DNA of 64,000 bases from an uncultured archaeon (GCA_964545795.1 CAZJGC010000001.1:6585-70584), one strand, 5' to 3'; positions 11,435 to 57,735 are shown, counted from the stretch's first letter. Translations and numbers: made by a program. The notes: generated from the sequence alone by a model not told the origin.

Positions 11435-11803
11435 CTATTTCAGTTTTTCATATAATTTGTCCACAGTTCTTTTGTCAATTCTTTTTCCAAAACATTTATG
11501 CGGCACAAGAGCCCCTGAGAAAGTTTTTGGTATATGCAAAAGTTCATGTATAAGGGTTTTGTCCTGCTGTTCTTTGTTAAATGAGTCAAATCTTTCTGAC
11601 AAAACTTCTATTATATAGTGGGGTTCTATGGAAAGGGCTTTCTGCCATATTTTTGGGAATGACCATATTCTTGCGTTTGCTTTGCTTTTTGAGTTGTAAG
11701 AACGAAAGCATATTATTTTGCCAGGGTCTATGTGTTTAAATTCAAGTTTTTGTATAATTTCTTCAATTCTTTTTTTAATATCTTCTGCCAACTCAAGTTT
11801 CAT
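11435..11803 (-). CDS. putative metal-dependent hydrolase (HEXXH; COG1451/SprT-like)
   Basis: The internal Met at 11803 avoids overlap with rpl15p. HELLH motif near the C-terminus. The longer 183-aa ORF overlaps the L15 start and is unlikely to be real. Confidence 0.5.
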   Translation of the reverse strand: MKLELAEDIKKRIEEIIQKLEFKHIDPGKIICFRSYNSKSKANARIWSFPKIWQKALSIEPHYIIEVLSERFDSFNKEQQDKTLIHELLHIPKTFSGALVPHKCFGKRIDKRTVDKLYEKLK

Positions 11804-11908
11804 GATATTAAATGGGTGTAAGAAAGATTTATAAACGTTGTTTCTAAATGATAGCAATAAAAGAATATAAATATAAAAATTCATTGAATCTAAAAACAGG
11901 TGAAAGAT

Positions 11909-12316
11909 ATGACGGCAAGATTCAGAAAGAAAACAAGCAGGCAGCGCGGCAGCAAAACTCATGGCTGGGGCGCTAAGAAAAAGCATCGCGGAGCAGGTTC
12001 CAGAGGAGGTCGCGGTCAGGCAGGGTTAATGAAGCATAAAAAATCATGGATGATTAAAAATGACCCAAATCATTTTGGAAGAATTGGATTCAAGAAACCT
12101 GAAAGGAAAAAACCTTGCAGCATAAATCTTATAGAACTTGACAGCATGGAAGGCAATGAATTTGATTTGAGAAAATTAGGTTATGACAAGCTTCTTTCAA
12201 GAGGCAATATAACGCGGCCAATTACAGTAACTGTAGAGAGCGCAACTCCCAAGGCAATAGAGAAAATAGAAAAGGCTGGAGGAAAGGTTGTAATTCTTGA
12301 CAGCGTTCAGGAATAA
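11909..12316 (+). CDS. rpl15: 50S ribosomal protein L15 (uL15)
   Basis: Basic Gly-rich N-terminus (GRGQAGLMKHKK). An AGGTGA RBS-like sequence lies upstream of the ATG at 11909. Followed by secY, the conserved spc-operon tail order. Confidence 0.85.
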   Translation: MTARFRKKTSRQRGSKTHGWGAKKKHRGAGSRGGRGQAGLMKHKKSWMIKNDPNHFGRIGFKKPERKKPCSINLIELDSMEGNEFDLRKLGYDKLLSRGNITRPITVTVESATPKAIEKIEKAGGKVVILDSVQE

Positions 12317-19517: not shown

Positions 19518-20258
19518 ATGAACATAGAAGCAATTCTTAAGAAGGTTGGGTTAACAGACAATGAAGTTAAGGTTTATAAACATCTTCTAATTCTGGGCGA
19601 AACTACTGCAAGCAAATTAGGAAAAGAGACAGGGATAGAAAGAAGAACAGTTTATGATATTGTTCAGAAACTGCTCAGAATGGGTTTGGTTTCTTTTATT
19701 GAAAAGGATAATAAAAAATATTATAAGCCAATAAATCCGTATAAGTTTGTTGATATTCTTGAAGAAAAAGAAGAACACTTAAGGAAAATTAGACATGAGT
19801 TTGAAAAAATGGTTCCGGAATTGGAAGAACTGATAAAATGAAATGATAGAAATGTTGATGCAAGAATTCTTTTTGGCAAGGAAGGAATAAAAACAATGTA
19901 TATGGATGAAATAAAGAAGGGCAAAGTGGTTTATGTAATCTGCACGGCAATTGATAAAACAGAAGAATTATTAAAGAACTTTCTTCCAATGTATACAAGA
20001 GAAAGAATTAAAAGAAAAGTAAAACTTAAGATTTTGTCTTCAAAAAAAGATATAGGACTTTTAAAACAGTACAAATTAGTTGAGATTCGCTCTTTGCCTG
20101 AAGAATATGTTTCTCCTGCAAGTTTGACAATTTACAGGGACAAATTAGGAATAACTTTATGGGCAGAAAATCCAATAACGGTTTTAATAAAAAATAAAGA
20201 AATAACAAGAAATTTTCTCAATTATTTTAAATTAATATGGAAGGCTGTTGGAAAATAA
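19518..20258 (+). pseudogene. TrmB-family transcriptional regulator interrupted by an in-frame TGA at 19839-19841
   Basis: N-terminal wHTH (ORF 19518-19841) and a C-terminal domain (ORF 19896-20258) share one frame. Read through, they give a ~246-aa TrmB-length protein. Confidence 0.5.
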
Positions 20259-20548
20259 AGCAGATATTAAATCTTTTTTATAGTAGCAACAGATAAATAT
20301 ATTGTATGAAGAGACGTTTTATTGTTTTTTCAGAAACGAAAAAAATGCACAGAAAAGCGATTATCTGAAAGTAGACGTACAGAACAAGAATAACAGATAT
20401 TATGATATGCTATTAGTTTATATAATCTGGATATCTTTTTGCACTTTTCTCATACTCTTCTATTGCTTTTTTATAATATAATTCCATCCTAACGCCCATT
20501 TTATTTTTTTAATTTTTTTCTGCAAGAATTTTTCAAATTTTTCACCTT

Positions 20549-20974
20549 TTATTTTTTCATAATATTTAAAAAATTTGGATTAGTGTGAGAAACAATATCT
20601 GCGAATTGAATAATACGAGCTTCAGGGCTCTTAGGAAATTCTAGCTTGTCATGCATTTCAATACAATAAAGGACTTTTTTAATTAATTTATCTTCAAAAC
20701 CATGCTTTTTCATTATTATTTTTGCTTCATTTAAACCACTGTTTACATGATTATTAGGATCAATAATATAACCAATATCATGAAGTATGGCAGATAAATG
20801 GACAACATCTCTATCAACATTTAAAATCTTAGCCAGCCTAAGTGCAAAATCTTTAACGATGCACAGATGATATTTGTAAAACCATTCAAACCCACAATAG
20901 TCCATATCAGCCTTATTGAATTTGTTTTCAACTTCTCTCTCAACACTTTTTATTTTTTCTATCACATATATCAA
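20549..20974 (-). CDS. HD-domain phosphohydrolase
   Basis: 141 aa with the H...HD...H...D pattern (LSAILHDIGY). Confidence 0.7.
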   Translation of the reverse strand: MIYVIEKIKSVEREVENKFNKADMDYCGFEWFYKYHLCIVKDFALRLAKILNVDRDVVHLSAILHDIGYIIDPNNHVNSGLNEAKIIMKKHGFEDKLIKKVLYCIEMHDKLEFPKSPEARIIQFADIVSHTNPNFLNIMKK

Positions 20975-21026
20975 CGCTTTGAATTTTTTTGAACATATTT
21001 TAATAATTTGTCATAATTTTCTAAAA

Positions 21027-21389
21027 ATGATTTTGATTCATTACTTATTAAATAAATTAAATTCTGATTTGATAAAAAATATCTATAGATTAAATAACGA
21101 ATTTGAGGACATGGATATCACACTATATGGTATTGACGTCATAAATACTGGAATTAAATCTAATTCTTTACTGGGTATTTTATTTCTAAATATTTTTGAA
21201 AATAGTAGGCTCCTTTATAAAACGAAAGATTTTAAATTATTTATACAGCAATTAAATGATATAGCTGAAAAGAATAGAGAATTTAATGAAAAATATAAAG
21301 AATTAGGAAGAAGCTATGCTATGATAAAAGATATTATGAATTTTATAAAGAAAAGTGTTTTATTAGAAAATTATAATATTGACGTATAA
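21027..21389 (+). CDS. hypothetical protein (low confidence; AT-rich ORF)
   Basis: Internal Met of the 20916-21389 ORF; the longer form overlaps the HD gene. No motifs. Confidence 0.2.
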   Translation: MILIHYLLNKLNSDLIKNIYRLNNEFEDMDITLYGIDVINTGIKSNSLLGILFLNIFENSRLLYKTKDFKLFIQQLNDIAEKNREFNEKYKELGRSYAMIKDIMNFIKKSVLLENYNIDV

Positions 21390-21551
21390 CTTTTATAATT
21401 AATAGAATGCTCAATGGCTTAAATTGTGGTTTTGTATGCGATAAAACAGAATTCCTATGTGTTAATGAGTTGATGCCCGTTTGAAATATGTATTAAAATA
21501 GAAAAATTAAATAATTAAATATATTTAACATATAACGGTTTTATGATATTT

Positions 21552-22523
21552 ATGGGAAGAGAGTTTTTAATAAAATCCGAAGAAGCATCTACTATAGGTA
21601 GTTATCCCGGAGCAAGAAGTATAGAGAAGTTGCTGCAGGCAGGTATTATTGTATTGGATAAACCATCAGGCCCCTCATGCCGCATTGTTGATTCTTATGT
21701 TAAAAAGATTCTAAATATTGAGAAATGTTCTCATGGAGGCACTCTTGACCCAAGAGTTACAGGAGTTCTTGTATTAGCTTTAGGAAATGCAACAAAATTA
21801 ATGCCGATATTGTTAAACAGCAGAAAAGAGTATATTGCGCTAATGCGGCTGCATAAAGATGTCCCCGAAGAAAAGGTAAGGAGCGTTTGCAATAAATTCG
21901 TAGGCAAAATAATGCAGAAACCTCCAAAAAAGTCGGCGGTTGCAAGAAAGGAAAGGGAGAGAGAAATATACTATCTTGAGATTCTTGAGATATCAGGCAG
22001 GGATGTTCTTATGAAAGTTGGTTGCGAGGCAGGCACATATATACGCAAGTTATGCTCTGATATTGGAGAGAATCTTGGCGGCGCGCATATGCAGGAGTTA
22101 AGGAGAGTTAGTTCTGGCTGTTTTGATGAGAGCAAGGCTGTTAAATTAGAAGATTTAAAGGATGCTTATGAGTTCTGGAAACAGGGAAATAAAGAATATA
22201 TTAAAAGCATGCTGTATCCAATGGAAAAAATTGCAGACAATATGAAAGTTGTTATTATAAAGGATTCTGCTGTTTCAAATATCGCAAACGGCGCACCTCT
22301 TGGCGTCAATGGAATATGCAGAATAGAGAGAGGAATAAAGAAAGGCGATGTTGTGGGAATGTTGACTTTGAACGGCGAATTTGTGGCTTTTGGAAATGCT
22401 GTTATAGATGTTGACAAGATAGACAGAAGGAAGAAACAAATAATTATAAAAACAGATAAAGTATTAATAGGAAAAGATTCAATTGATATCTACAAGGCTG
22501 TTTGCAATGAAAGGAAAAAATAA
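21552..22523 (+). CDS. cbf5: tRNA/rRNA pseudouridine synthase Cbf5 (H/ACA RNP catalytic subunit)
   Basis: TruB catalytic motif (HGGTLDPRVTGVL) and a C-terminal PUA domain. Confidence 0.85.
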   Translation: MGREFLIKSEEASTIGSYPGARSIEKLLQAGIIVLDKPSGPSCRIVDSYVKKILNIEKCSHGGTLDPRVTGVLVLALGNATKLMPILLNSRKEYIALMRLHKDVPEEKVRSVCNKFVGKIMQKPPKKSAVARKEREREIYYLEILEISGRDVLMKVGCEAGTYIRKLCSDIGENLGGAHMQELRRVSSGCFDESKAVKLEDLKDAYEFWKQGNKEYIKSMLYPMEKIADNMKVVIIKDSAVSNIANGAPLGVNGICRIERGIKKGDVVGMLTLNGEFVAFGNAVIDVDKIDRRKKQIIIKTDKVLIGKDSIDIYKAVCNERKK

Positions 22524-35990: not shown

Positions 35991-36182
35991 ATGAGCCAAG
36001 AAGATGTGTTAAATATTTTGAAAGATTTAAAAGGGGAAGCCACTAGTAAGCAGATAAGAGAGATTGCAAAAAAGAGATTCCCTTATAGAACTCTTTATCT
36101 CTATGTTAATAATCGCTTAAAGAAATTGGAGAAAAATAAAAAAGTTAAAAAGGAAGGAGAAAAATGGAAGATAATACAATAA
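35991..36182 (+). CDS. small winged-helix DNA-binding protein (paralog of the upstream gene)
   Basis: 63 aa; overlaps the MTase start. Confidence 0.5.
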   Translation: MSQEDVLNILKDLKGEATSKQIREIAKKRFPYRTLYLYVNNRLKKLEKNKKVKKEGEKWKIIQ

Positions 36183-36946
36183 AAAATCTGTTAGAAAAAT
36201 ATCATATTAAAGATATGGGTAGTTGGGAAAATGTTAATGCAGATTTAATTATTACTGATCCACCATTTGGAATAGAATTTAGTGGTAAAAATGGAAACTA
36301 TCACAGAAATGGAGATAATGTAGTTGATGGATATGTTGAATGGAAAGTTGAAGAATACGCAGATAAAATAAGGCAATTATTAGAAACTATTAAAAAGAAT
36401 CTAAAAGAAAATGGACAATCTTTAATCTTCTCTGGTTGGAACAATAGCAATATCATTCATAATGAAATTTTAAAATTTAAAGGATTAACATTAAGGGGCA
36501 AAATGTATTGGGCTTATAATTTTGCTCCTGCGTGTAAATTAAGACCTGCTCATAATGTTTATGAAATCTTTTGGGTAACAAAAGGGGAAAAATGGCATTA
36601 TCATAAAAGATGCTCCACGATACACTGCGATAAAGGAGAACCAAATTTAACAACACTGATATTTAAAAGAGATTATAAAATGAATATGCCAAAATATCCT
36701 ACGAGATTACCATTTAAGCTGCTTCAATGTCTTTTAGAACATTTTTCAAACGAAAAAGATTTGATATTTGACCCTCTTGCTGGGAGTGGAATGTTGGGCG
36801 TTGTCGCTTATATGCTTAAGAGAAACTTTTTATTAGGGGATTTAAATAAAAATGGTAAAATTGTTTTTAAAGCATTATTAGATTATTATTTAAATAAAAA
36901 TGGTCTTGCTCAAGATCAAAAATTAATGACTTGGTGGAAAAAATGA
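36164..36946 (+). CDS. DNA methyltransferase, beta-class amino-MTase (N4-C or N6-A)
   Basis: Motif IV DPPF (IITDPPFG) precedes motif I (FDPLAGSGM). This permuted order is typical of beta-class MTases. Confidence 0.8.
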   Translation: MEDNTIKNLLEKYHIKDMGSWENVNADLIITDPPFGIEFSGKNGNYHRNGDNVVDGYVEWKVEEYADKIRQLLETIKKNLKENGQSLIFSGWNNSNIIHNEILKFKGLTLRGKMYWAYNFAPACKLRPAHNVYEIFWVTKGEKWHYHKRCSTIHCDKGEPNLTTLIFKRDYKMNMPKYPTRLPFKLLQCLLEHFSNEKDLIFDPLAGSGMLGVVAYMLKRNFLLGDLNKNGKIVFKALLDYYLNKNGLAQDQKLMTWWKK

Positions 36947-37632
36947 AGAAAGAAGAATTTTTGAAAATTGCAAAAGAAATTGCAGAAGGATTTAAAGATA
37001 TTCCTACATTATGGGACGGAAGAAAATCTATTTTAGAAATGAAAGAAGCAGGGTTTCCTCATTGGAGGCAAATGGAATGGATTGGTTGGTATTTTCAATT
37101 TTTGTGTGAAAAATTATTAAAAGATAAATTAGAAATACCAGGACCCAAATATGGTAATGTTGAATTTGATGGATTTAAAGTAATTCCTTGGGATTTTAAA
37201 GCTCATGCAATAAATACAAGCAGTCATAAAATCATTGTTAATGATAGTGAAGCAACATCAAAAGGTATTAAAGAATTTGGAAGTGTTGGACTAATCTTGG
37301 CCATGGGAGAAGTAAAATATAATGATGATGAGAGGACTTTTCAAAAATGGCATGAAGAATTAAAAGGCGGTAAATCTAAATATGAACTAGAAAGAATTAA
37401 AAGAGGAGCTTGGTCTAGATTAAGAAAAGTTGAATTTAAATTAGAGCAGATTTCTTTTATAAAAATAGATGATTCTGTTTTAGTTAAATGTGGCTCATTT
37501 CAAAGAGATTTTAGAAACTCTAATGGAACTCCAAGACGAGAAAAAGTTTTATTAGATTTAGAAAAATTAGATGAAGAAATTGTGTTTTTCTTAGATTTTA
37601 AACCAAAATCAAACCAGAAGAAGTTAAAATAA
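36931..37632 (+). CDS. putative restriction endonuclease partner of the MTase (hypothetical)
   Basis: 233 aa; overlaps the MTase stop by 16 nt (operonic). Possible PD-(D/E)xK-like D...DFK residues, not confirmed. Confidence 0.4.
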   Translation: MVEKMKKEEFLKIAKEIAEGFKDIPTLWDGRKSILEMKEAGFPHWRQMEWIGWYFQFLCEKLLKDKLEIPGPKYGNVEFDGFKVIPWDFKAHAINTSSHKIIVNDSEATSKGIKEFGSVGLILAMGEVKYNDDERTFQKWHEELKGGKSKYELERIKRGAWSRLRKVEFKLEQISFIKIDDSVLVKCGSFQRDFRNSNGTPRREKVLLDLEKLDEEIVFFLDFKPKSNQKKLK

Positions 37633-37634
37633 AA

Positions 37635-37650
37635 GGACGCCGCCCGTTAG
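37635..37650. repeat. right terminal inverted repeat of R-M cassette (GGACGCCGCCCGTTAG)
   Basis: Inverted copy of 35661-35676, 2 nt after the nuclease stop. Confidence 0.4.
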
Positions 37651-37946
37651 AAAAATCTTTGGGTAAGCATTGTGAACCGCTTAACCAATGTTAGATAAAG
37701 TTGCGAAGCAATTTTATTTTTTCTCTTTTGTTTTGTTGAGGTTAAGCGAAGGATTTTTCTTTTGATAAAGCAACCCCTCAATTTAGGGGTGGGTGGTGGG
37801 GGTTTTAGAGTTCGTTCTAACTTCTCCGTTCGTTCCACTCACTACGACCCTTTGAGATGCGCCAAAACTCCTTTTAAGGCATAAGATAGAAAAAATATTT
37901 ATAAAATTCTACTGAATATTTATCATTAAGAGAGGTTGAAATATAG

Positions 37947-38810
37947 ATGATAGACAAAAAGATTGAAAAAAACAAATCACAAATAAAAGAAACTATAATT
38001 TGTTTAATTTGTGTTATAATTTTCTTTGTTTTAATATATTATTTATATATTTTACTGTGTCCATTAATATTGTTTTCTTCTGTTACTGTTTCATTTCTTG
38101 TAATTATGTTTTATGAATTAATAAGAAACAAACTATATAAAAAACAATATCATAATGCTAACATTATTTTTTCATATCTGTTTCTGTTATCTTCTTTAAT
38201 ATTATTTGTTTCAATCTTATTTTTGTCTTTTCCAAATCAACCAGAAGGAAGAAATCTTACTCATCAGAATGTAAGTTTTGATATTTATATTATAAACCAT
38301 ATTTTCACAAAAGAGGATGTATTTAATTATATAAAAGAAGCAAACAAAATTTGGAATAAATATAATATTTCAATTTTGGCAGATGACATTTATTTTAAAG
38401 ATATTAATCTTTCTCGCGAGGAGATACAATACTTGTTTACAAAAGTAAATAATTCTAAGGAAGAGAATGAAGAATGTATAGAATATTTGCATATTCTTTC
38501 TAAATTTGTTAATAACGATAAAAAACTAAAAATTATTTTTTTAGATAATTTAGGAAGTAATATAAGGGGAAGGGGTTGTCTTTGTGGTTGTAGTTTTGCA
38601 ATAGTTGCTCCAGATAAATTATTTACTGATTTTACAGGGTGGGATCTTGCACACGAAATAGGGCATATATTGAATCTATATGATATTAATGAAAATATTA
38701 AAATGAATCTGATGAACAATCGACATAAACCTTTGTTTTTAAAATCAGATTATTTGTCGCAAGAGCAAGTTAACAACGTAACTAAAAAGGCTATAAGTTT
38801 GAACACATGA
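37947..38810 (+). CDS. membrane-anchored putative zinc metallopeptidase (HEXXH)
   Basis: Two N-terminal TM helices and a DLAHEIGHIL motif. Confidence 0.55.
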   Translation: MIDKKIEKNKSQIKETIICLICVIIFFVLIYYLYILLCPLILFSSVTVSFLVIMFYELIRNKLYKKQYHNANIIFSYLFLLSSLILFVSILFLSFPNQPEGRNLTHQNVSFDIYIINHIFTKEDVFNYIKEANKIWNKYNISILADDIYFKDINLSREEIQYLFTKVNNSKEENEECIEYLHILSKFVNNDKKLKIIFLDNLGSNIRGRGCLCGCSFAIVAPDKLFTDFTGWDLAHEIGHILNLYDINENIKMNLMNNRHKPLFLKSDYLSQEQVNNVTKKAISLNT

Positions 38811-38857
38811 AGTACTATTTTTGATATTTTATATAATAATTGTGGAAAGTGTTTAAA

Positions 38858-39271
38858 ATGCCAAATGAAATTTTTATAAGTTTGAAGCCGAAATTTGCAG
38901 AACTTATCAGGCAAAGAAAAAAGACGCATGAATTCAGGTCATACAAGCCGCGATATAAAATTAACAGGTTCTGGATTTATGTGACGCAACCGATAGCATT
39001 GCTAAAATATGTTGCGGAAGTTGGAGAACCAGCAGAGTATCCGGAAAAAATTCCTGAAACAGGCATAGGAAACAGGGAATTTAATAAAGGTTTGAAGACT
39101 TCTAATTATGCTTTTCCAATATTGCATTTATATGAATTAAAACAGCCTATATCTTTGCAAAAACTAAAAGAGAAATTTGGTTTTGCACCGCCTCAAAGTT
39201 TTGCTTACATCAATAGATATAAATCTCTTGCAGAATGCGTGAGAGCCTCTGGCTTAAGAAGGATATTCTGA
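38858..39271 (+). CDS. ASCH-domain protein
   Basis: GxKxxExR-like motif (RKKTHEFR) near the N-terminus; ~137 aa. Confidence 0.5.
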   Translation: MPNEIFISLKPKFAELIRQRKKTHEFRSYKPRYKINRFWIYVTQPIALLKYVAEVGEPAEYPEKIPETGIGNREFNKGLKTSNYAFPILHLYELKQPISLQKLKEKFGFAPPQSFAYINRYKSLAECVRASGLRRIF

Positions 39272-39615
39272 ATTAATTTATATTCTCCTTATATTCTCCA
39301 GCATATAGATTTAATATTCAATTATACTATAAAATGGCACTAAACAAGTATTCTGGCAAATATATTTTCTTTTGTAAAAATGCTTTTTATCCCTGAAATT
39401 AAAAAGGAAATATGAGAGAGAAAAGGGGCAGGTGTCTGCAAAAAAGCGATTTTGACGAGCATGGAAATTTGATATGGAAAGGCGACTTATGCATTGATGT
39501 GGAAGCAGTAAAGAAATTTAACAGAAAAAACAAATTATGAAAACTCTCTTTTACAGCAGTATATGCTTCTGATGCGACCAAAAGATTTATAAGTTGTTTT
39601 TCTTATAAGATAGTC

Positions 39616-41823
39616 ATGAATTTTGTAAAACTTCCAAAGCATCTGAGCAAAGACAGCGTCAAAGAAGTTGGCGGAAAATCAGCGAATCTTGCAGAATTAA
39701 TAAACAACGGATTTCCTGTTCCCGAGTGTTTTTTTGTGACTGTTAACGCTTATAGGGAGTTTTTGAAAGAAGCGGGGCTTGAAAATAAAATATTGGAAAT
39801 GGTTGATTCAATTGATTTTGAGAATGTGTCATCTCTTCAGGAGACTTCGCAGAATATAAAGGCTCTTATAACTAATGCAAAAATGCCTGAGAAAATAGAA
39901 CAGGAAATAAAATCAATATATAAAGCGCTTGTATCAGCAGTAGGTTCTTCTCTTGTTGCTGTGCGCTCTTCTGCAGTAACAGAAGATGTGAAAGGAGCTT
40001 CTTCCGCAGGTCAGCAGGAAACTTTCTTGAATGTGTCTGGCGGAGACGAAGTTGTCAATTCCGTAAAAAAATGCTGGGCTTCTTTGTTTAATGCAAGGGC
40101 AATATATTACAGGCATAAGCACAATCAGGAAAAAAATCCGGGCATAAGCGTTATTGTTCAGAGAATGATTGAAAGCAAGAAAAGCGGAATTATGTTTACA
40201 GTAAACCCCTCAAACCCTGAAAACAAGGATATAACAATAGAAGCATGCTGGGGACTTGGAGAAACTATTGTGCAGGGTGAAGTTATACCTGACAGGTATG
40301 TAGTTGATAAAAATACAGGAAGAATTATTGAAATTAATATAGGAAAGAAAGGCATACAAAGAGTGCTTGAATCAGACAAGACAGTAAAACAAAAAGTCAG
40401 TGAAGACATGGTTGAGAAGCAGGTTTTAACAACCAATGAAATTGTAACTCTGGCAGAATATGGAAAAAGAATAGAAGAGCATTATGGAGTGCCGCAGGAT
40501 ATTGAATATGGGATTGATGATAAAATATACATACTTCAGTCAAGGGCAATTACGTTTTTAGAATCTAAAGAAAAAAGCGATGTTGAGAATGAGGGAGAAG
40601 TTCTTGTGAAAGGACTTACCGCGTCTCCGGGCATTGCAACAGGCCCTGTAAAGATTATAACAAAACTTTCCGAGGCAGGAAAAGTCAATAAAGGCGATAT
40701 TCTTGTTACAGAAATGACATCTCCTGATTTTGTGCCTGTAATGGAGAAGTCGGCAGCCATTGTAACTGACAAAGGAGGTTCTACATGCCATGCTGCCATT
40801 GTTTCAAGGGAATTGGGAATACCATGCATAGTTGGAACAACAAACGCAACGCAGGTATTGAAAGAAGGAGAAATTGTTACTGTTGATGCAGACAAAGGCG
40901 TAGTATTCAAAGGAGTTGTAAAAGTTCATGAACAAAAGACAGACGCCTCAAATGAAAAAACAAAAACAAAAATAAAACTTAATATTGCATTTGCTTCAAC
41001 TGCCAAGCAGGAATTTGCCGAGAAGTCTGATGGAGTTGGACTTGTGAGAATTGAGCATATGCTGACAGAAGAAGGGATTCATCCGATGGAATATATAAGA
41101 ATGGGAAGAAGCCAAGAACTTACAGACATTCTGGTCAGAGAAATAGGAAAAATAGCGGAAGTTTTCAAAAACAAGCCTGTATGGGTGCGGACCCTTGATG
41201 CAAGAACTGATGAATATAGGCATATGAAAGGCGGTGAAAATGAGCCTAAGGAAGACAACCCCATGCTTGGATGGCATGGAATAAGAAGAAGCCTTGATGA
41301 GCCGGAAACAATAAAATGCGTTTTTTCTGCTGTAAAGAAGCTTCATGAGCAGGGATTAAAAAATATTGCTTTAATGTTGCCATTTGTTATAAGCGCATCT
41401 GAAGTCAGAAAAACTAAAGAACTTGCAAGAGAATTTGGTTTGCCTGACTCAGTCAAGTTCGGAGTTATGGTGGAAACACCTGCCGCTGCATTGACTATAG
41501 AAGATATATGCAAAGAAGGAATTGATTTTATTTCTTTCGGTTCAAATGACTTGTCCCAGCTTGTGCTTGGCGTGGACAGAAATAATGAGAAATTATCAAA
41601 GCTTTTTAATGAAATGCATCCCGCCATGTTGAAATTATTTGAAATGGTAATTAAAACATGCAAAAAATACAATGTTGAAACAAGCATCTGCGGAGAGGCA
41701 GGTTCAAATCCTGAAATGGTAAAGAAACTTATTGAGTTTGGCATTGATTCAGTTTCCTGCAATATTGATGCTATTGATAAAATACGGCATGCTGCGGCAG
41801 AAGCAGAACATAACTTGATGTAA
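39616..41823 (+). CDS. ppsA: phosphoenolpyruvate synthase (pyruvate, water dikinase)
   Basis: N-terminal ATP-grasp PPDK domain, phosphohistidine domain (GGSTCHAAIVSRELGIPCIVG), C-terminal PEP-utilizing TIM barrel. Confidence 0.8.
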   Translation: MNFVKLPKHLSKDSVKEVGGKSANLAELINNGFPVPECFFVTVNAYREFLKEAGLENKILEMVDSIDFENVSSLQETSQNIKALITNAKMPEKIEQEIKSIYKALVSAVGSSLVAVRSSAVTEDVKGASSAGQQETFLNVSGGDEVVNSVKKCWASLFNARAIYYRHKHNQEKNPGISVIVQRMIESKKSGIMFTVNPSNPENKDITIEACWGLGETIVQGEVIPDRYVVDKNTGRIIEINIGKKGIQRVLESDKTVKQKVSEDMVEKQVLTTNEIVTLAEYGKRIEEHYGVPQDIEYGIDDKIYILQSRAITFLESKEKSDVENEGEVLVKGLTASPGIATGPVKIITKLSEAGKVNKGDILVTEMTSPDFVPVMEKSAAIVTDKGGSTCHAAIVSRELGIPCIVGTTNATQVLKEGEIVTVDADKGVVFKGVVKVHEQKTDASNEKTKTKIKLNIAFASTAKQEFAEKSDGVGLVRIEHMLTEEGIHPMEYIRMGRSQELTDILVREIGKIAEVFKNKPVWVRTLDARTDEYRHMKGGENEPKEDNPMLGWHGIRRSLDEPETIKCVFSAVKKLHEQGLKNIALMLPFVISASEVRKTKELAREFGLPDSVKFGVMVETPAAALTIEDICKEGIDFISFGSNDLSQLVLGVDRNNEKLSKLFNEMHPAMLKLFEMVIKTCKKYNVETSICGEAGSNPEMVKKLIEFGIDSVSCNIDAIDKIRHAAAEAEHNLM

Positions 41824-48689: not shown

Positions 48690-48725
48690 AATTTATTAAT
48701 AAGCGAGAAAGTATTTATGTTTTGT

Positions 48726-49466
48726 ATGTTTGATATTGTTGGAAACAGAAATAAAGCGGTTGCAATTATAGAAGGGGACAAAAAGCAGGCTGTTGAAATT
48801 CTGGAAAAATATAAAAATGTCAAATCTGTCTTAAAAAAGATTTCAGGCAGGGAAGGAATTTATAGAATATACAGGATGCGACTGCTTGCAGGCGAGAAAA
48901 ACACAGAAGTTGTGCATAAAGAATATGGCTATTTACTAAAATTAGACCCAAGAAAAGTTTATTTCTCTCCAAGAGAAGCTGAAGAGCGGCAGAGAATTGC
49001 AAAAAAAGTTAGAAACGGCGAAAGAATTCTTGTAATGTTTTCAGGCGTTGCGCCATATGCAATAGCCATTGCTGTCAAGAAATCCTGCGAAATAGTGTGC
49101 GTGGAAATAAATAAAAAAGCGGTTGAATATGCCAATGAAAACGTTATTATTAATAGGCTGAAAGGCGAAGTTGAAAATATATGCGCAGATATAAGGCAAG
49201 TGAAAGATAAAATCGGAAAATTTGACAGAATAATAATGCCCTTGCCTGAAACGGCTTATGAATTCCTGCCTGAAGCATTTGCTGTTGCAAAAAAAGGAGC
49301 AGTAATTCATTTGTATGCGATTTCCAGCGAAAAGACAATGTTTAAAGATATAGAAGATAAGATTTCTGAACAGGTAAATCTCAGATATAAAGTTATTGAC
49401 AAACAAAGAGTGTTGCCTTTTGGAGTCAGATTGTGGAAAGTCAGAATTGATATTAAAGTTTTATGA
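48726..49466 (+). CDS. Trm5/Tyw2-family SAM-dependent tRNA methyltransferase
   Basis: Met-10+ like motif (ILVMFSGVAPYAI). Confidence 0.6.
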   Translation: MFDIVGNRNKAVAIIEGDKKQAVEILEKYKNVKSVLKKISGREGIYRIYRMRLLAGEKNTEVVHKEYGYLLKLDPRKVYFSPREAEERQRIAKKVRNGERILVMFSGVAPYAIAIAVKKSCEIVCVEINKKAVEYANENVIINRLKGEVENICADIRQVKDKIGKFDRIIMPLPETAYEFLPEAFAVAKKGAVIHLYAISSEKTMFKDIEDKISEQVNLRYKVIDKQRVLPFGVRLWKVRIDIKVL

Positions 49467-50029: not shown

Positions 50030-52438
50030 ATGGCAGATAACATGAATCAATCTAAAAGGTATGAACCAGGAGAAGTTGAGCCAAGAATACAAAAATTCTG
50101 GGAAGATAATGAATTGTTTAAATTTGACCGATGCAGCAACAAGCCTGTTTTCTCAATAGACACGCCGCCTCCTACAATTTCCGGACTAATTCATATGGGT
50201 CATACAATGAGTTATAATCAGGCTGAGTTTGTTGCCAGATTCTGGAGAATGATGGGTTATAATGTTTTCTATCCCATGGGTTTTGATGACAACGGCCTTC
50301 CAAGCGAACGTTATGTAGAAAAGAAACTTAATATAACAGCGAATAAAATGCCAAGGCATGAGTTTGTGAAACTATGTTTAGAAGAAACAAAAAAAGGTGC
50401 AGAACAATTTAAAAATGTCTGGAGAGAGCTCGGTATATCTGTTGACTGGTCATTGTCTTACAGCACAATAAACAAGTTGAGCCAAAGGATATCGCAAAAG
50501 TCATTTCTTGATTTATATAACAAAAATAGAGTTTACAGGGCTGAAGCTCCTGTAACTTGGTGCCCAACCTGCCAGACTGCTGTTGCGCAGGCAGAACTTG
50601 AAGATAATGAAAGAGAGTCATTCTTTAATTACATAAAATTTGATGTAGACAACGGAGAAACAATAACAATTGCTACAACAAGACCGGAATTAATGCCTGC
50701 GTGCGTTGCTGTGTTTGTCCACCCTGATGATGAAAGATATAAGAAATTCGTAGGAAGAAAAGTGAAACTGCCTTTCTTTGGAAGAGAAGTTCAGATTTAT
50801 GCAAATGAGTCTGTTGACATGGAATTTGGCACAGGCGCTGTTTATCACTGCACTTTTGGAGACATGGACGATATACACTGGGTGAAAAAGTACAACCTGC
50901 CTATAATAAAAATTATGAACAAGGATGGAACTCTTAATGAAAATGCGGGAAAATACAAAGGCATGAAATCTGAACAGGCAAGAAAGCAAATTTTGGAAGA
51001 CTTAAAAGCTGAAGGCAGGGTTGAGAAGCAGGAAAAAATCAGGCAGGTTGTTAATGTTCATGAGCGTTGCGGAACTCCTGTTGAATTTATTATGTCTGTT
51101 CAGTGGTTCATAAAAATTCTTGACATGAAGGAAAAATTGCTTGAACTTGGAAATCAGATAACATGGCACCCCGCTCACATGAAAATAAGATATGAACAAT
51201 GGGTGCAGGGATTGAATGCAGATTGGCTCATATCAAGGCAGAGATTTTTCGGAGTGCCTTTCCCTGTATGGTACTGCAAAAAGTGCGGCAGCATAATTCT
51301 TGCAGAGGAAAGCGAGCTTCCTGTTGACCCTGCTTATTCAAAACCAGATAGAAATTGTTCATGCGGTTCCTCTGATTTTGAACCGGAAAGAGACGTGATG
51401 GATACATGGGCAACATCATCTGTAACACCGCTCATAAACGGGAAATGGAAGGAAGAAGATTCAATGTTAGATAAAATATATCCTATGTCTCTGAGACCTC
51501 AGGCGCATGACATAATCAGGACATGGGCATTCTACACAATAGCAAAGTGTTATATGAATACAAATCAGATACCATGGAAGACTATTATGATTTCAGGACA
51601 TGGACTTGACCCTCATGGAAAGAAAATGTCAAAGTCAAAGGGAAATATTGTAGAACCTTTGCCTGTAAAAGAAAAATACTCCGCCGATGCGCTAAGGTTC
51701 TGGTCAGCTTCGGCAAACCTTGGCGAAAATCTTCCTTATCAGGAAAAAGATGTTGCCACGGGACAGAAACTGCTTACAAAACTATGGAATGCTTCAAGGC
51801 TTGCCGGAAAATACTTGGACAACAAAAAACCTGATGATTTGAAAATTATAGACAAGTGGTTGCTTAGCAAACTAATGAAGCTTGTAAGGTTTTCAACTGA
51901 ACGTTTTAAAGTTTGCGAATATGGCAGGGCAAAACTGGAAACAGAAATATTTTTCTGGCATGAGTTTGCTGACAATTATCTTGAGATGGTAAAATATAGA
52001 TTGTATGAAGGCAGTGACCAGTCGGCAAAATACACTCTTTACATAAGTCTGTTGACATTGTTAAAGCTGTTTGCCCCAATTATTCCGCACATAACTGAAG
52101 AAATTTATCAAATTTATTTTAGAAACAGGGAAAAAGAGATTTCCATACATATTTCAAAATGGCCTGAAGTTGATGAACAATTGATAAATGAAGAAGCAGA
52201 AGAGATTGGAGAAATGGCAAAAGAAATAATTTCTGCGTTGCGACAGTATAAAAGTTCGCGAAAACTTGCTTTAAACACAGAGTTGAAGAAAATTACTATT
52301 GAATGCGATGAAGAAGCAAAAAGAAAAATTCAGCAAGTTGCGCCTGATATAAAAGGCACAATGAAAGTCAAGGAAATAGAATTTGGAAAGGCAGATGAAA
52401 TTGAAGTTGGAAAAATAAGGATTAACGTAGAAAGATAG
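50030..52438 (+). CDS. valS: valine--tRNA ligase
   Basis: Class I motifs (PPPTISGLIHMGH, KMSKSKGN). The 802-aa length fits archaeal ValRS better than IleRS or LeuRS. Confidence 0.7.
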   Translation: MADNMNQSKRYEPGEVEPRIQKFWEDNELFKFDRCSNKPVFSIDTPPPTISGLIHMGHTMSYNQAEFVARFWRMMGYNVFYPMGFDDNGLPSERYVEKKLNITANKMPRHEFVKLCLEETKKGAEQFKNVWRELGISVDWSLSYSTINKLSQRISQKSFLDLYNKNRVYRAEAPVTWCPTCQTAVAQAELEDNERESFFNYIKFDVDNGETITIATTRPELMPACVAVFVHPDDERYKKFVGRKVKLPFFGREVQIYANESVDMEFGTGAVYHCTFGDMDDIHWVKKYNLPIIKIMNKDGTLNENAGKYKGMKSEQARKQILEDLKAEGRVEKQEKIRQVVNVHERCGTPVEFIMSVQWFIKILDMKEKLLELGNQITWHPAHMKIRYEQWVQGLNADWLISRQRFFGVPFPVWYCKKCGSIILAEESELPVDPAYSKPDRNCSCGSSDFEPERDVMDTWATSSVTPLINGKWKEEDSMLDKIYPMSLRPQAHDIIRTWAFYTIAKCYMNTNQIPWKTIMISGHGLDPHGKKMSKSKGNIVEPLPVKEKYSADALRFWSASANLGENLPYQEKDVATGQKLLTKLWNASRLAGKYLDNKKPDDLKIIDKWLLSKLMKLVRFSTERFKVCEYGRAKLETEIFFWHEFADNYLEMVKYRLYEGSDQSAKYTLYISLLTLLKLFAPIIPHITEEIYQIYFRNREKEISIHISKWPEVDEQLINEEAEEIGEMAKEIISALRQYKSSRKLALNTELKKITIECDEEAKRKIQQVAPDIKGTMKVKEIEFGKADEIEVGKIRINVER

Positions 52439-52474: not shown

Positions 52475-52752
52475 AGCAGGAGAATAGACCGGGTTGTTCG
52501 GCGTAACCTGTAACCCGAAATCGTCGTTATGCGGGGGTCGAAGTCTGGGAGCGCTTGCAGAAGTCTGTGAAGGCCTGCAATTCAACTGAGAAGCTTCGTC
52601 TTCTGGAGCTGTGGCTATAGTGAACCGACCCAGGTCCGGAAGGAAGCAAGTCTAATCTATAGTTACGGCGTTCAGAAGGTTGCGGAGTGGAGGCGAGTTG
52701 CAGGACTACCTTCGCAGGTTTTTGCCGGCAATCTCAGATGCTTCTCCTGCTA
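52475..52752 (+). ncRNA. ffs: signal recognition particle RNA (7S/SRP RNA)
   Basis: ORF-free, GC-rich ~280-nt island. It contains the universally conserved domain-IV motif CCAGGUCCGGAAGGAAGCA. A terminal helix closes it (5' GCAGGAGAA pairs with 3' UUCUCCUGC). Confidence 0.7.
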
Positions 52753-54921: not shown

Positions 54922-54983
54922 AATTGGTGCTCCCGATGGGACTTTCAAAACAGGAAAAAACGGAATCCATGCTCTTCCTTAAG

Positions 54984-55013
54984 GATAAGGGGTTGCATGT
55001 TCTGGACAGCCCC
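54984..55013. repeat. hairpin repeat unit GATAAGGGGTTGCATGTTCTGGACAGCCCC (copy 1, inside the tRNA-Glu intron)
   Basis: 30-mer with a GGGG...CCCC stem; second copy 56 nt downstream. Confidence 0.6.
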
Positions 55014-55039
55014 GCTTTTCATGCTCTTCAATGGGGGTT

Positions 55040-55069
55040 GATAAGGGGTTGCATGTTCTGAACAGCCCC
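55040..55069. repeat. hairpin repeat unit copy 2 (GATAAGGGGTTGCATGTTCTGAACAGCCCC)
   Basis: 29/30 identical to copy 1. Confidence 0.6.
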
Positions 55070-55087
55070 TTATTTTGAACCCATGTC

Positions 55088-55408
55088 TCAAGCTCGAGAG
55101 GCTTGAATCCTTGACCGGACTAGACGACGGGAGCGTTTTTTTGTTGTTAAAACAGATTCCATGGTTTTTGTTATTGACCTCTGAGAGATTTTTATCATAA
55201 TAAATGCTATAACAACAACTATAAATGTTATAATTGTTGCAGCAATGAATTTATATATAACGCCTTCACCTGAAGGCACAAGACTATTTATAAATGCCTG
55301 CATTGCATCTCTCCAGCTAAGCGCCACCAAAAAACCAAGAGCAGTTATAATTGAACCTATTATAATATTTTTGAGATTCATTCTTTCTACATCTTCCTGA
55401 AATGTCAT
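55088..55408 (-). CDS. hypothetical membrane protein; C-terminal 47 nt overlap the tRNA-Glu 5' exon
   Basis: 106 aa, 2-3 TM. The basic tail KKRSRRLVRSRIQASRA is encoded by tRNA sequence, so the true stop/extent is doubtful. Confidence 0.35.
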   Translation of the reverse strand: MTFQEDVERMNLKNIIIGSIITALGFLVALSWRDAMQAFINSLVPSGEGVIYKFIAATIITFIVVVIAFIMIKISQRSITKTMESVLTTKKRSRRLVRSRIQASRA

Positions 55409-55416
55409 GACAACAC

Positions 55417-55556
55417 CTTATTAAAATGGTGAGCCCGGAGGGATTCTCATAACCCTTAATTTGAACCCCCGACTTACTGGTCCGAAGCTTCGACTTAAAT
55501 AATCAGTCGCTTTAGACCAAAAATGCTTTTGTCTGTCCAGGCTGAGCCACGGGCCC
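55417..55556 (-). tRNA. tRNA (isotype unresolved) with a 16-nt insertion in the T-loop and a 15-nt insertion in the anticodon arm; CCA encoded
   Basis: Minus strand: acceptor GGGCCCG/CGGGCUC (one G-U). D-loop AGCCUGG... T-stem GGGGG/CCCUC, with UUCAAAU then UAAGGGUUAUGAGAAU before the 3' stem. A + CCA + T-run. The anticodon region CGACU-GAUUAUUUA-AGUCG plus the GUCGAAGCUUCGGAC hairpin did not resolve into a canonical 7-nt loop by eye. Confidence 0.5.
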
Positions 55557-55614
55557 ACTTTTCACTATTTTTATTAACATTTATTTTATAAGTAACTTAT
55601 GCTATGTTATATTT

Positions 55615-56007
55615 ATGGGCAAAACAAATAAAAAACCCGTTCTTCCAAGGCAGAAACTTAGTTTCGGGCAAAAAGCCGCGGATGAAGTAACAAAGTTTGT
55701 AGGAAGCTGGACATTTATATTTATTTTTCTTTTATATCTTTTTCTCTGGGTAATACTGAATGTTACAGCAATTGTGCAGAATTGGGACCCTTACCCGTTT
55801 ATTTTGCTAAATCTTACGCTTTCATGCATTGCGGCAATTCAGGCGCCTTTGATTCTGATGAGCCAGAACAGAACAGCTGAAAGAGACAGGATAAAGGCTG
55901 AAAGAGACTATATGGTTAACAGAAAAGCCGAGAAAGAAGTTGAAAACATGCAAAAAGACTTGGATGAAATAAAAGAAATGATAAGAAACCTTGAAAGAAA
56001 ATTATAG
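55615..56007 (+). CDS. DUF1003-family membrane protein
   Basis: Conserved core (WDPYPFILLNLTLS...QAPLILMSQNR) plus a coiled-coil tail. Confidence 0.55.
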   Translation: MGKTNKKPVLPRQKLSFGQKAADEVTKFVGSWTFIFIFLLYLFLWVILNVTAIVQNWDPYPFILLNLTLSCIAAIQAPLILMSQNRTAERDRIKAERDYMVNRKAEKEVENMQKDLDEIKEMIRNLERKL

Positions 56008-57360
56008 ATGCTTGCTCATATAATATTTTCCAAGTTTATATCCAAGAGTTCTGTAATATTCCCTGACTCCCACTCCCGAGATAACAGAAATTTTCTTAAA
56101 CCCATTTTCCATTGCAATTGCTTCAGCTTCTTGCATTAATTTCTTTCCCAAACCTTTATGCTGAATTATTCCCTTTTTATTAAGTCCTGCCTGCCTTCCG
56201 AATACATGGAGTTCTCTTACTATTGCCGAGTTCTCCAGCTCCTTTACGAATGTTCTTTCCTGCAGCCTTAATCTGAGAATTCCAAGCACTGTTTTATGCC
56301 TGTCTTCATATGATAAAAATATTTCCCTGCCTCCGGAAGCTCTATAATCTATTCTTTTAACTTTCAAAGAATCATAATCAATGTTTCTTCCATCCCTTAA
56401 AACATAACCTGCTTCCCTGCATCTTATGCATTTGCATTTCCTGCCGCGTGATTTTATTTCATCTCTAAGATGAGAATAAACACACTCTGATAATATATAC
56501 TCTGCAGGTATGTCGCGCATTACTCTCATAATTCTTACATATTCAGGAATATTCTTCTTTATTTCAATTATTGTTTCTATTATCTGCTGCGTAGTATAAG
56601 GTTTGTATTTTCCAGAATTGTAAAGATTCTCCAGTTCCGTTCCTTTTATAACAAGAGTTGGATATATCTTTATCTGGTCAGGCTGAAAACGTTCATCTGA
56701 GAAAAGCATCTCAAAAGTTTTAATGTCTTTTTCAGGAGAAGAACCTGGAAGCCCTATCATCATATGATAACCTACTTTGAAACCCGCCTGCTTTAATAGT
56801 TCTGTAGAAGAAACAACATCTTCTACTGTGTGTCCGCGTTTTATTTTTTTATAAATCCCATTATCAAGAGTTTGGACTCCAATTTCTACTCTTGTGCAGC
56901 CAAAATTAAGAAATCTTATTATTTCCTTTTCATCTAATTCCGGTCTTGTTTCAAGACACAGGGCAACGCATCTGTGTTTTGCTGTTTCATTTATCGCCTT
57001 CGCCTGTTCAAGGTTTTCCGATTCCTTTTCGTTTAGTCCGTCAAAACATGCCTTTACAAATGATTCCTGATAATTTTCAGGATAATTTGAAAAAGTTCCA
57101 CCCATTATTATAAGCTCAACTTTGTCTGTTTCATGCCCCAATATTTTCAATACCTTTAACCTTCCCTGCACCTGTCTTTTTCCATCCCATTTGCTTCTTA
57201 CAGCCCTGAGAACAACAGGACTTTTTGATGTGTAACTCTTTGGTATTCCAGGCTCAGAGGGGCAATATATGCAACTATTTGAACATGGAAAAGGCTTGAG
57301 CATAACAGCCACAGGAACAATCCCTGATATGGAACGCGTTGATTTTCTCGGTTTATGCAT
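56002..57360 (-). CDS. elp3: tRNA uridine(34) acetyltransferase Elp3 homolog (radical SAM + GNAT)
   Basis: CSNSCIYC radical-SAM cluster motif and a C-terminal GNAT acetyltransferase domain. Confidence 0.8.
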   Translation of the reverse strand: MHKPRKSTRSISGIVPVAVMLKPFPCSNSCIYCPSEPGIPKSYTSKSPVVLRAVRSKWDGKRQVQGRLKVLKILGHETDKVELIIMGGTFSNYPENYQESFVKACFDGLNEKESENLEQAKAINETAKHRCVALCLETRPELDEKEIIRFLNFGCTRVEIGVQTLDNGIYKKIKRGHTVEDVVSSTELLKQAGFKVGYHMMIGLPGSSPEKDIKTFEMLFSDERFQPDQIKIYPTLVIKGTELENLYNSGKYKPYTTQQIIETIIEIKKNIPEYVRIMRVMRDIPAEYILSECVYSHLRDEIKSRGRKCKCIRCREAGYVLRDGRNIDYDSLKVKRIDYRASGGREIFLSYEDRHKTVLGILRLRLQERTFVKELENSAIVRELHVFGRQAGLNKKGIIQHKGLGKKLMQEAEAIAMENGFKKISVISGVGVREYYRTLGYKLGKYYMSKHL

Positions 57361-57394
57361 AAATCTTTTAATAGATTAAAAATTATTTAAAGTA

Positions 57395-57425
57395 GGGGAC
57401 TGCGCAATAAATGCAATCCCCTACA
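57395..57425. repeat. hairpin repeat unit GGGGACTGCGCAATAAATGCAATCCCCTACA (copy 1)
   Basis: 31-mer with a GGGGA...TCCCC stem; second copy at 57494. Confidence 0.55.
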
Positions 57426-57430
57426 ACCCC

Positions 57431-57480
57431 AATAAGGGAAAGTGCAGAGCATGAATTTCCTTAACAACCCTTAGTAAAGG
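57431..57480. repeat. ectopic copy of the tRNA-Leu T-loop intron sequence (47/50 identical to 57666-57715)
   Basis: AATAAGGGAAAGTGCAGAGCATGAATTTCCTTAACAACCCTTAGTAAAGG lies 57 nt upstream of the tRNA-Leu 5' end, outside any tRNA exon context. Confidence 0.6.
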
Positions 57481-57493
57481 AGTATGCAAAAAC

Positions 57494-57524
57494 GGGGACT
57501 GCGCAATAAATGCAATCCCCTACA
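57494..57524. repeat. hairpin repeat unit copy 2
   Basis: Identical 31-mer except the last bases; ends 13 nt before the tRNA-Leu 5' end. Confidence 0.55.
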
Positions 57525-57536
57525 TTGCAGAAACAT

Positions 57537-57735
57537 GCGGGGGTCGCCAAACAGTCTTTCTCTAAATGAGAAGGGCTGGACAAAGCCAGGTCAAAGGTGC
57601 TAGGTTGAGGGCCTAGTTGGTAAAGTTTACAAAAAACTTCAACAATAGTCCATTCGTGAGTTCAAAATAAGGGAAGGTGCAGAGCATGAATTTCCTTAAC
57701 AAGCCTTAGTAAAGAAAGTCTCACCCCCCGCACCA
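57537..57735 (+). tRNA. tRNA-Leu(GAG) with insertions in the D-loop, variable region and T-loop; CCA encoded
   Basis: Acceptor GCGGGGG/CCCCCGC. UC, then GCC D-stem, a ~34-nt insertion, then AGCCAGGUCAAA-GGU. Anticodon arm CUAGG-UUGAGGG-CCUAG (G37). Oversized variable region. T-stem GUGAG/CUCAC, with UUCAAAA then a 52-nt insertion before the 3' stem. Discriminator A + CCA + T-run. Confidence 0.65.

Follow-up and report, generated by a model that had tools for sequence, protein, structure and literature searches.

Related hairpin modules in the T-loop introns of three tRNA genes from an uncultured archaeon

Three tRNA genes in a 64,000-nt stretch of DNA from an uncultured archaeon (GCA_964545795.1 CAZJGC010000001.1:6585-70584; the whole stretch is hereafter called the window) carry insertions in their T-loops, which raises the question of why sequences inserted into tRNAs of different identity, and on opposite strands, look alike. 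An initial annotation of the locus had noted a common start and a further shared motif, and had proposed either a homologous, possibly mobile, intron family or a conserved processing or guide element in place of independent junk insertions. We favour, at a probability of roughly three in four, a lineage-specific and recently expanding family of bulge-helix-bulge (BHB) introns at tRNA position 59/60 that is built of duplicating hairpin modules. The shared intron sequence would then be inherited and not demanded by the BHB structure, and the modules would have been duplicated at the DNA level, between tRNA genes and into a 5' leader, in the recent history of this lineage.

Three interrupted tRNA genes and their splice-site geometry

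Neither ARAGORN, with its intron option on or off, nor Rfam, at the gathering threshold or at E <= 10, recognised any tRNA in the window. The genes were instead located by hand and with a scan for acceptor and T-stems, and all three encode CCA. They and their introns are as follows:

54925-55134, minus strand: tRNA-Glu(CUC), one intron, located by the acceptor/T-stem scan; spliced form called as a 78-nt tRNA-Glu(ctc) by ARAGORN
54942-55073, minus strand: Glu T-loop intron, 132 nt, position 59/60
55427-55556, minus strand: tRNA-Arg(UCG), three introns; spliced product called as tRNA-Arg(tcg) by ARAGORN
55511-55531, minus strand: Arg D-stem intron, 21 nt, position ~23/24
55489-55503, minus strand: Arg anticodon-stem intron, 15 nt, position ~30/31
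55444-55459, minus strand: Arg T-loop intron UUAAGGGUUAUGAGAA, 16 nt, position 59/60
57537-57735, plus strand: tRNA-Leu(GAG), three introns; spliced product an 89-nt tRNA-Leu(gag)
57553-57586, plus strand: Leu D-loop intron, 34 nt
57622-57645, plus strand: Leu variable-arm intron, 24 nt
57667-57718, plus strand: Leu T-loop intron, 52 nt, position 59/60

Once the introns are excised, all three genes and five orthologues from two related populations (L006, with 83% Elp3 identity to the window, and L001, with 74%) are called as canonical tRNAs by ARAGORN, and the intron-less Leu(GAG) gene of a more distant relative, L146, matches the spliced Leu architecture. The gene order Leu-Elp3-DUF1003-Arg(-DUF5654-Glu-DUF362) is common to the three populations. 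The exons of tRNA-Glu differ from those of the L001 orthologue at 2 positions, and across three orthologues the Arg anticodon-stem intron has a conserved stem and exons and a variable hairpin loop. Near-invariant exons combined with introns that differ in position and sequence between genomes argue for three functional tRNA genes. Over 54990-57301 the window agrees at 100% with an independent Logan assembly; the tRNA structures are therefore not assembly artefacts.

That standard tRNA finders miss all three genes could point to pseudogenes, or to genes that are never spliced and whose insertions are tolerated junk or are kept in the RNA. This can effectively be excluded, however: stems, anticodon loops and CCA are all intact, the exons are conserved between genomes while the introns turn over, the genes are syntenic single copies in all three populations, and an insert of 132 nt in the T-loop is incompatible with the tertiary fold of a tRNA.

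We infer that the three T-loop insertions are archaeal BHB introns at position 59/60, removed by the proteins EndA and RtcB with the cleavage positions given here. The T-arm, like the anticodon arm, has a 5-bp stem and a 7-nt loop, and 59/60 is the equivalent of the canonical 37/38. In the predicted structure, the central helix would consist of U54-A57 (UUCA) paired with UGAA, UGAG or AGAA at the 3' terminus of the intron, with a 5' bulge of A58, A59 and the first intron base, a 3' bulge of the last two intron bases and U60, adjoining the T-stem, and an intron-internal helix starting at once with UAA(GGG). If both sides are cut behind the second bulge base and the ends are then joined, the result would be a normal T-loop, UUCAAAU, and this predicted loop is the uninterrupted T-loop of the L006 Arg gene.

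Drawn by hand, the Arg BHB takes the textbook mini form, with UUCA:UGAG as a 4-bp helix (one G.U), AAU and AAU as bulges and UAA-GGG-UUA as the intron-side hairpin. The Glu BHB, also drawn by hand, has UUCA:UGAA, bulges AAA and AGU, and as its intron-side helix the first of the hairpin modules described below, UAAGGGG...CCCCUUA. Its BHB-constrained fold (-42.1 kcal/mol) lies within 1.3 kcal/mol of the minimum-free-energy (MFE) fold (-43.4 kcal/mol); for Leu the two differ by 0.3 kcal/mol (-11.4 against -11.7 kcal/mol). UAAGGG is a structural element, the 5' arm of the helix abutting the 5' splice-site bulge. The initial annotation had let each insertion begin with UAAGGG immediately after UUCAAA(A/U). 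The hexamer does follow these nucleotides in all three genes, but by BHB geometry the A or U after UUCAAA is the first intron nucleotide, and the intron begins one base earlier. Introns at 53/54 and 59/60, relaxed hBH and HBh' motifs and genes with several introns have all been documented before (PMC4090602).

Two further observations concern these genes. An open reading frame (ORF) encoding a DUF5654 protein (55088-55408, minus strand) shares its final 47 nt with the 5' half of tRNA-Glu, which lies on the same strand, and the ~15 codons at its end are thus tRNA-Glu sequence; an overlap with tRNA-Glu recurs in the L001 orthologue, and possible reasons are co-transcription or an ORF that has been called too long. 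At its 3' end the Leu D-loop intron (57553-57586) has CUGGACAAAGC, which resembles the exon/intron junction of the Arg D-loop, CUGGACAGACAAAAGC (55511-55545), and this match, although very short, hints at exchange between tRNA genes that included exon bases.

Shared signatures and hairpin modules of the T-loop introns

The likeness between the insertions is most easily seen in two short signatures, whose copies in the window are:

55067-55079, minus strand: TTCAAAWTAAGGG, Glu T-loop
55453-55465, minus strand: TTCAAAWTAAGGG, Arg T-loop
57661-57673, plus strand: TTCAAAWTAAGGG, Leu T-loop
55018-55027, minus strand: motif AGAGCAUGAA, Glu intron, linker after module a1
54966-54975, minus strand: motif AGAGCAUGGA, Glu intron, linker after module a2
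57681-57690, plus strand: AGAGCATGRA in the Leu insertion
57446-57455, plus strand: fourth AGAGCATGRA copy, upstream of tRNA-Leu

The first signature has exactly 3 matches in the 64 kb, all in the three T-loops, where shuffling predicts 0.01; given a TAAGGG frequency of 2.1e-4 per position, the chance of the hexamer recurring in two further T-loops is ~4e-8. The strings quoted in the initial annotation (GAAGAGCAUGAAAAG, GAAGAGCAUGGAUUCC and GCAGAGCAUGAAUUUCC) were all found as written, and its statement that the Glu and Leu introns share a motif in the sense orientation stands, with two Glu copies and one Leu copy. It had not included the fourth copy, in the Leu leader; all four are sense-oriented in tRNA transcripts. 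Whether the motif exceeds its genomic background depends on its length: AGAGCATGRA occurs 4 times against 0.55 expected, a count reached in 0/100 shuffles, but the bare 8-mer AGAGCATG is not over-represented (4 against 2.6 expected), and what is unusual about it is its location. The four copies represent two independent lineages, one arising from a tandem duplication in the Glu intron and the other from a duplication between the Leu intron and the leader.

Both signatures belong to a larger unit. The T-loop introns are built of hairpin modules of ~35 nt, which come in two related types, each followed by (U)CAACCC. The a-type reads (U)AAGGGG-CUGUyCAGAACAUGCAA-CCCCUUA and the e-type AAGGGAAGGUGCAGAGCAUGAAUUUCCUUA. 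Eight modules (2 from the Glu intron, 1 from the Leu intron, 3 from the Leu leader and 2 from the L001 Leu intron) align without gaps at 69% column identity, with a stem that is 80% paired and in which 4 pairs have been altered on both sides. A covariance model (R1) gives the module copies 47-57 bits and anything elsewhere in the 64 kb at most 16 bits. The copies inside the introns of the window are:

55029-55076, minus strand: module a1, Glu intron, 56.9 bits; its 5' arm is the UAAGGG already noted
54973-55020, minus strand: module a2, Glu intron, 46.9 bits
57664-57711, plus strand: Leu intron module, 51.6 bits

The Glu intron consists of an a-type hairpin, a linker with GAAGAGCAUGAA, a second a-type hairpin, a linker with GAAGAGCAUGGAUUCC and the 3' end UGAA-AG, and it contains an internal direct repeat of 30 nt, 97% identical, with a period of 56 nt. 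Its linkers carry GAAGAGCAUGRA; the second resembles a shortened e-type hairpin, and the linker after a2 is able to form GGAA/UUCC round the motif, as in the Leu-type module. In the Leu intron, an e-type hairpin carrying GCAGAGCAUGAA in the apical region is joined to a remnant of an a-type 3' arm, CAAGCCUUA. Module order is accordingly a-e'-a-e' in Glu, e-(a remnant) in Leu, e-a in the L001 Leu intron and a-e-a in the leader, and the Arg intron, at 16 nt, looks like the family pared to its minimum, with UAAGGG-UUA and the UGAG-AA required for the BHB. Within the window the modules are confined to T-loop introns and the tRNA-Leu 5' leader; every intron that bears one sits at 59/60, and related introns were not found at other tRNA positions.

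In local-alignment shuffle tests, the Glu intron matches the Leu intron of the window at p = 0.002, the L001 Leu intron with 30/37 bases identical (0/3000 shuffles) and the leader hairpin d1, again with 0/3000 shuffles. As negative controls, the introns that these genes carry in the D-arm, anticodon stem and variable arm show no similarity (p > 0.25). The modules are thus homologous, and the suggestion that the insertions are not independent junk is borne out by these alignments.

Independent insertions at 59/60 might nevertheless have come to resemble one another through pairing with UUCA, the helix that follows the bulge and an AT-rich genome. The UUCA pairing does dictate the 3' ends (UGAA, UGAG and AGAA, then AG or AA), and the 8-mer AGAGCATG is unremarkable by count alone. 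The BHB demands a helix and not a sequence, however, and the ~4e-8 chance of three identical UAAGGG applies here; the likeness spans 37-39 nt, loop and tail included; and L001 introns at 53/54, described below, meet the BHB with unrelated sequences. Convergence is for these reasons effectively excluded.

The second signature was examined as a possible guide, processing or k-turn element, as the initial annotation had proposed. AGAGCAUGRA lies in and beside the apical loop of the e-type (Leu-type) hairpin in 2 of the 4 copies, and the other two, from Glu, occupy the linkers that follow a-type hairpins; none of the four is in a BHB helix. The tandem G.A pairs of a k-turn are absent from the motif sequence, and a conserved guide or processing element is not supported either, as AGAGCAUGAA reads AGAACUUGCA in the L001 Leu orthologue and both Rfam and a search of the window for targets came back empty. 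We therefore describe AGAGCAUGRA as the loop region of the e-type, part of a module, without demonstrated function of its own.

The wider proposal that the modules are functional RNA, acting in cis as a folding or processing aid or giving rise to a stable (possibly circular) small RNA or guide recognised through AGAGCAUGRA, we regard as decidedly unlikely. The stem survives sequence change, with some changes on both sides, the modules occur solely in tRNA transcripts and in sense orientation, and the first module always adjoins the 5' bulge; archaeal introns may also host such RNAs, for example the box C/D small RNA (sRNA) in the tRNA-Trp intron (PMC4090602). Against this, the motif is altered to AGAACUUGCA in an orthologous Leu intron, the Arg intron presumably works with just UAAGGG-UUA, and the orthologous Glu and Arg genes of the relatives lack any module. 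Further, no C box (RUGAUGA), D box (CUGA), H/ACA box or tandem sheared G.A was found in the intron sequences, no known RNA was found in the inserts by Rfam at E <= 10, and no antisense target of the motif exists in the window. The introns resemble the tRNA-Trp intron in holding a structured RNA, but unlike it they have no C/D boxes, k-turn or Rfam match, and their motif is not conserved in an orthologue.

The sequence led us to reject k-turn, C/D and H/ACA structures for the hairpins. We likewise rejected the idea that the a-type loop (UUCAGAA) mimics a T-loop, since it has G where A58 is needed.

Intron gain and module copying among close relatives

Comparison with L006 and L001 bears on how the family arose. 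The L006 Arg gene has an intact GGGGGTTCAAATCCCTC and keeps the other two introns, so that the insertion in the window is delimited to exactly 16 nt; the Arg 59/60 intron is also absent in L001, as is the Glu 59/60 intron. The L001 Leu T-loop intron occupies the same site as that of the window and is one module longer. In the T-arms of the L001 Glu and Arg genes (L001 3990-4135 and 3598-3728, respectively), introns are found at 53/54 instead, both ending in CAUGAA, and here CAUG pairs with exon nucleotides 48-51 (CAUG or CGUG) as the central helix of the BHB. Of the other Leu introns, that in the D-loop has an L006 counterpart of unrelated sequence at the same site, and that in the variable arm an L001 counterpart of 17 nt and different sequence, again at the same site. 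By parsimony, the Leu 59/60 intron would be the oldest member of the family, and the Arg and Glu 59/60 introns would have been gained in the lineage of the window.

A short resemblance may be recorded separately: CAUGAA|UUCAAAUCC in L001 differs from CAUGAAUUUCC of the e-type module solely by CAAA.

The modules were also found upstream of tRNA-Leu, where the following features can be distinguished:

57365-57377, plus strand: putative TATA element CTTTTAATAGATT, on the basis of conservation with L001 and L006 and the usual archaeal spacing from TATA to start
57389-57436, plus strand: leader module d1, a-type, GUAGGGGACUGCGCAAUAAAUGCAAUCCCCUAC then ACAACCCC, 51.4 bits
57431-57479, plus strand: U', leader copy of the Leu T-loop intron, with the fourth AGAGCAUGAA
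57488-57535, plus strand: leader module d2, a-type, 48.0 bits

The putative start of tRNA-Leu transcription lies at ~57395, at the start of the d1 hairpin. U' is identical to 57666-57714 at 47/49 bases (96%), and d1 and d2 form a 42-nt direct repeat whose cores are identical at 31/31 positions. The upstream promoter region of the Leu gene is conserved with L001 and L006, with ~150 nt of extra sequence interposed in the window; in L001 the tRNA follows almost directly after the promoter region, and in L006 a single decayed a-type hairpin (19 bits) occupies the same place in the leader. With d1, U' and d2, the range of the modules therefore includes a 5' leader, in which the a-e duplication is very recent. 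Recent gain or copying is supported by two comparisons, namely the lack of the 16-nt Arg insertion in L006 and the 96% copy of the Leu intron in the leader. The proposal of a homologous, possibly mobile, intron family is thus upheld, both by module homology and by the evidence of gain in Arg and the leader; the direction and mechanism of module copying are what we infer. UAAGGG would owe its retention to the young age of the copies and to its place at the start of the helix abutting the 5' splice site.

A stronger version of this account is possible, though we consider it unlikely. The ~35-nt modules could be a self-propagating repeat specific to discarded pre-tRNA segments, namely T-loop introns and 5' leaders, one that brings or recruits what a BHB at 59/60 needs, so that its insertion would create new introns; the precise insertion of 16 nt in Arg and the copy in the leader are suggestive of this.

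Alternatively, the modules could be a non-autonomous mobile DNA element, such as a miniature inverted-repeat transposable element (MITE), a repetitive extragenic palindrome (REP) or an IS200/IS605-derived palindrome, that survives only in discarded RNA, with the intron family as a by-product. Near-identical hairpin copies (d1/d2 cores 31/31; U' and intron 96%), modules outside introns in the Leu leader, AAU...AAU flanking the Arg insertion and variable presence between close relatives all agree with such an element. It remains unlikely in our view: no further copy was found in the 64 kb, and none outside tRNA transcripts in ~120 kb from the loci of relatives; the repeats have a direct or tandem arrangement and not a terminal inverted one; no transposase was found among the window ORFs scanned; and the AAU repeat is explained equally well by the two BHB bulges. 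Phage and plasmid collections yielded zero BLAST matches, and viral contigs yielded 14 chance matches for one pattern and 0 for the other.

It is highly improbable that the insertions are remnants of integrative elements or partial duplications of a tRNA 3' end (attachment-site-like sequences) that later became spliceable, even though tRNA 3' halves are classic att sites (PMC3293823). Within the Glu intron, CCCCCAUUGAAGAGCAUGA resembles the 3' end of its own gene, CCCAUCGGGAGCACCA, with differences that are mostly transitions, and it pairs with the 5' strand of the T-stem in the MFE fold. The resemblance is non-significant (shuffle p = 0.35), however, no integrase or element DNA was found nearby, and the Leu and Arg introns show nothing similar.

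Several results weigh against the favoured account of an expanding 59/60 BHB intron family. As for structure, the Arg BHB evaluates to -3.7 kcal/mol, and the arm folded alone prefers a slipped T-stem at -10.1 kcal/mol; the intron-side helix of the Glu BHB is a hairpin at a multibranch junction and not a continuous helix; and the Leu BHB is relaxed and imperfect in both the window and L001, with UUC:GAA giving 3 bp next to an A.A mismatch and with the 5' site inside an internal loop. A Pfam scan of ~40 ORFs in the window detected neither EndA nor RtcB. As for distribution, a strict module pattern retrieved 3 chance bacterial matches from 185,579 species genomes (this genome and that of L001 not among them), and a looser pattern retrieved from metagenomes, among the matches listed (at least 120), only chance matches in coding regions or terminators at <=25 bits, as judged by context and covariance-model score. 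The family has been seen in two genomes and as one decayed copy, and its covariation support is correspondingly thin. Eight more distant relatives with Elp3 or DUF362 (L002, L005, L007, L146, L147, L148, L150 and L152) are non-syntenic and have neither modules nor tRNAs with T-loop introns.

Host, neighbouring genes and known intron systems

The host is a DPANN-type archaeon. A full-length signal recognition particle (SRP) RNA at 52477-52749 (plus strand; 171.6 bits), the sole match in the window at the Rfam gathering threshold, marks it as archaeal, and the nearest named protein homologues, from metagenome-assembled genomes of Aenigmatarchaeota and 'Nanoarchaeota', point to a DPANN-type lineage. 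G+C content is ~36%, and a ribosomal-protein operon is present.

Several genes for tRNA/rRNA modification and for tRNA charging lie in the window (21543-22523, 48717-49466, 50030-52438 and 56002-57360), a set comprising Cbf5 (TruB-PUA), a Trm5/TYW2 methyltransferase, a class I aminoacyl-tRNA synthetase and Elp3; the last of these is transcribed away from tRNA-Leu, from a back-to-back promoter. G+C dips to 0.28-0.30 (against ~0.36) at 36000-40000 and at 20000-22000. The former stretch holds an N6/N4 DNA methylase (36164-36946), behind which lie ORFs without Pfam matches, and may be a restriction-modification or mobile island. An ORF carrying a 'putative phage metallopeptidase' domain (11438-11986, minus strand) adjoins genes for a DHH-family phosphoesterase and ribosomal protein L15e. 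The SRP54 gene of a more distant relative (L002/L003 13822-16926) is split by an intein with a LAGLIDADG endonuclease domain.

Non-canonical BHB introns known from other archaea (Marck & Grosjean 2003 and Sugahara et al. 2008, as presented in PMC4090602) share with those of the window the 59/60 position, a 4-bp helix with 3-nt bulges or an hBH/HBh' form, up to three introns per gene and the failure of standard finders to detect them. Their hosts as presented there are crenarchaeal and not DPANN-type, the Glu intron at 132 nt slightly exceeds the 11-129 nt range that this review gives, and repeated hairpin modules set the window introns apart from those it describes. A nearer parallel is the 'large-scale intron transposition' of Thermoproteales (Fujishima et al. 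2010, via PMC4033280 and PMC4090602), to which the window family is comparable. There, too, similar introns occur in tRNAs of different identity and were gained after species divergence, by a copying presumed to act at the DNA level and of unknown mechanism. As these reviews summarise it, however, related Thermoproteales introns occupy canonical and various non-canonical sites, whereas those of the window occur only at 59/60, with a copy in a leader, and modular tandem hairpins and a leader copy are not among the features summarised.

DPANN lineages are reported to have more disrupted tRNA genes and an EndA with an extra (L3) loop (Kaneta et al. 2018, PMC5829648). That study concerns the same superphylum, and the incomplete tRNA sets it reports imply hidden disrupted genes; it covers the enzyme and counts of gene types and, unlike the present analysis, no intron sequence families. 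Intron gain in the tRNA-Thr gene of Caldiarchaeum subterraneum (Sugahara et al. 2012, PMC3293823) likewise involves presence and absence between very close relatives, but the insertion there is 1.8 kb long with a recombinase and a tRNA fragment, whereas in the window it is exactly 16 nt with no element nearby.

Both 59/60 BHB introns and families of paralogous introns are thus already known, and the value of this locus is that of an example and not of a new principle. What is new is the DPANN host, the single T-loop site, the modular tandem hairpins, the copy in a 5' leader and the exact 16-nt gain. All tRNA genes of the window are missed by standard finders, which matters for estimates of completeness and codon usage in DPANN genomes. 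The gain of protein-spliced tRNA introns in archaea is still poorly understood, and reviews have explicitly asked for 'snapshots' of insertion events (PMC4033280). The locus provides such a snapshot in several respects: a 16-nt gain in Arg that is exactly delimited by comparison with a close relative, a Leu intron whose orthologue differs by one complete module, gained or lost, an intron copy in a leader, and Glu and Arg introns that lie at 53/54 in one genome and at 59/60 in another. If the modules do propagate themselves, they would represent a concrete, still-active mechanism of intron gain in DPANN archaea.

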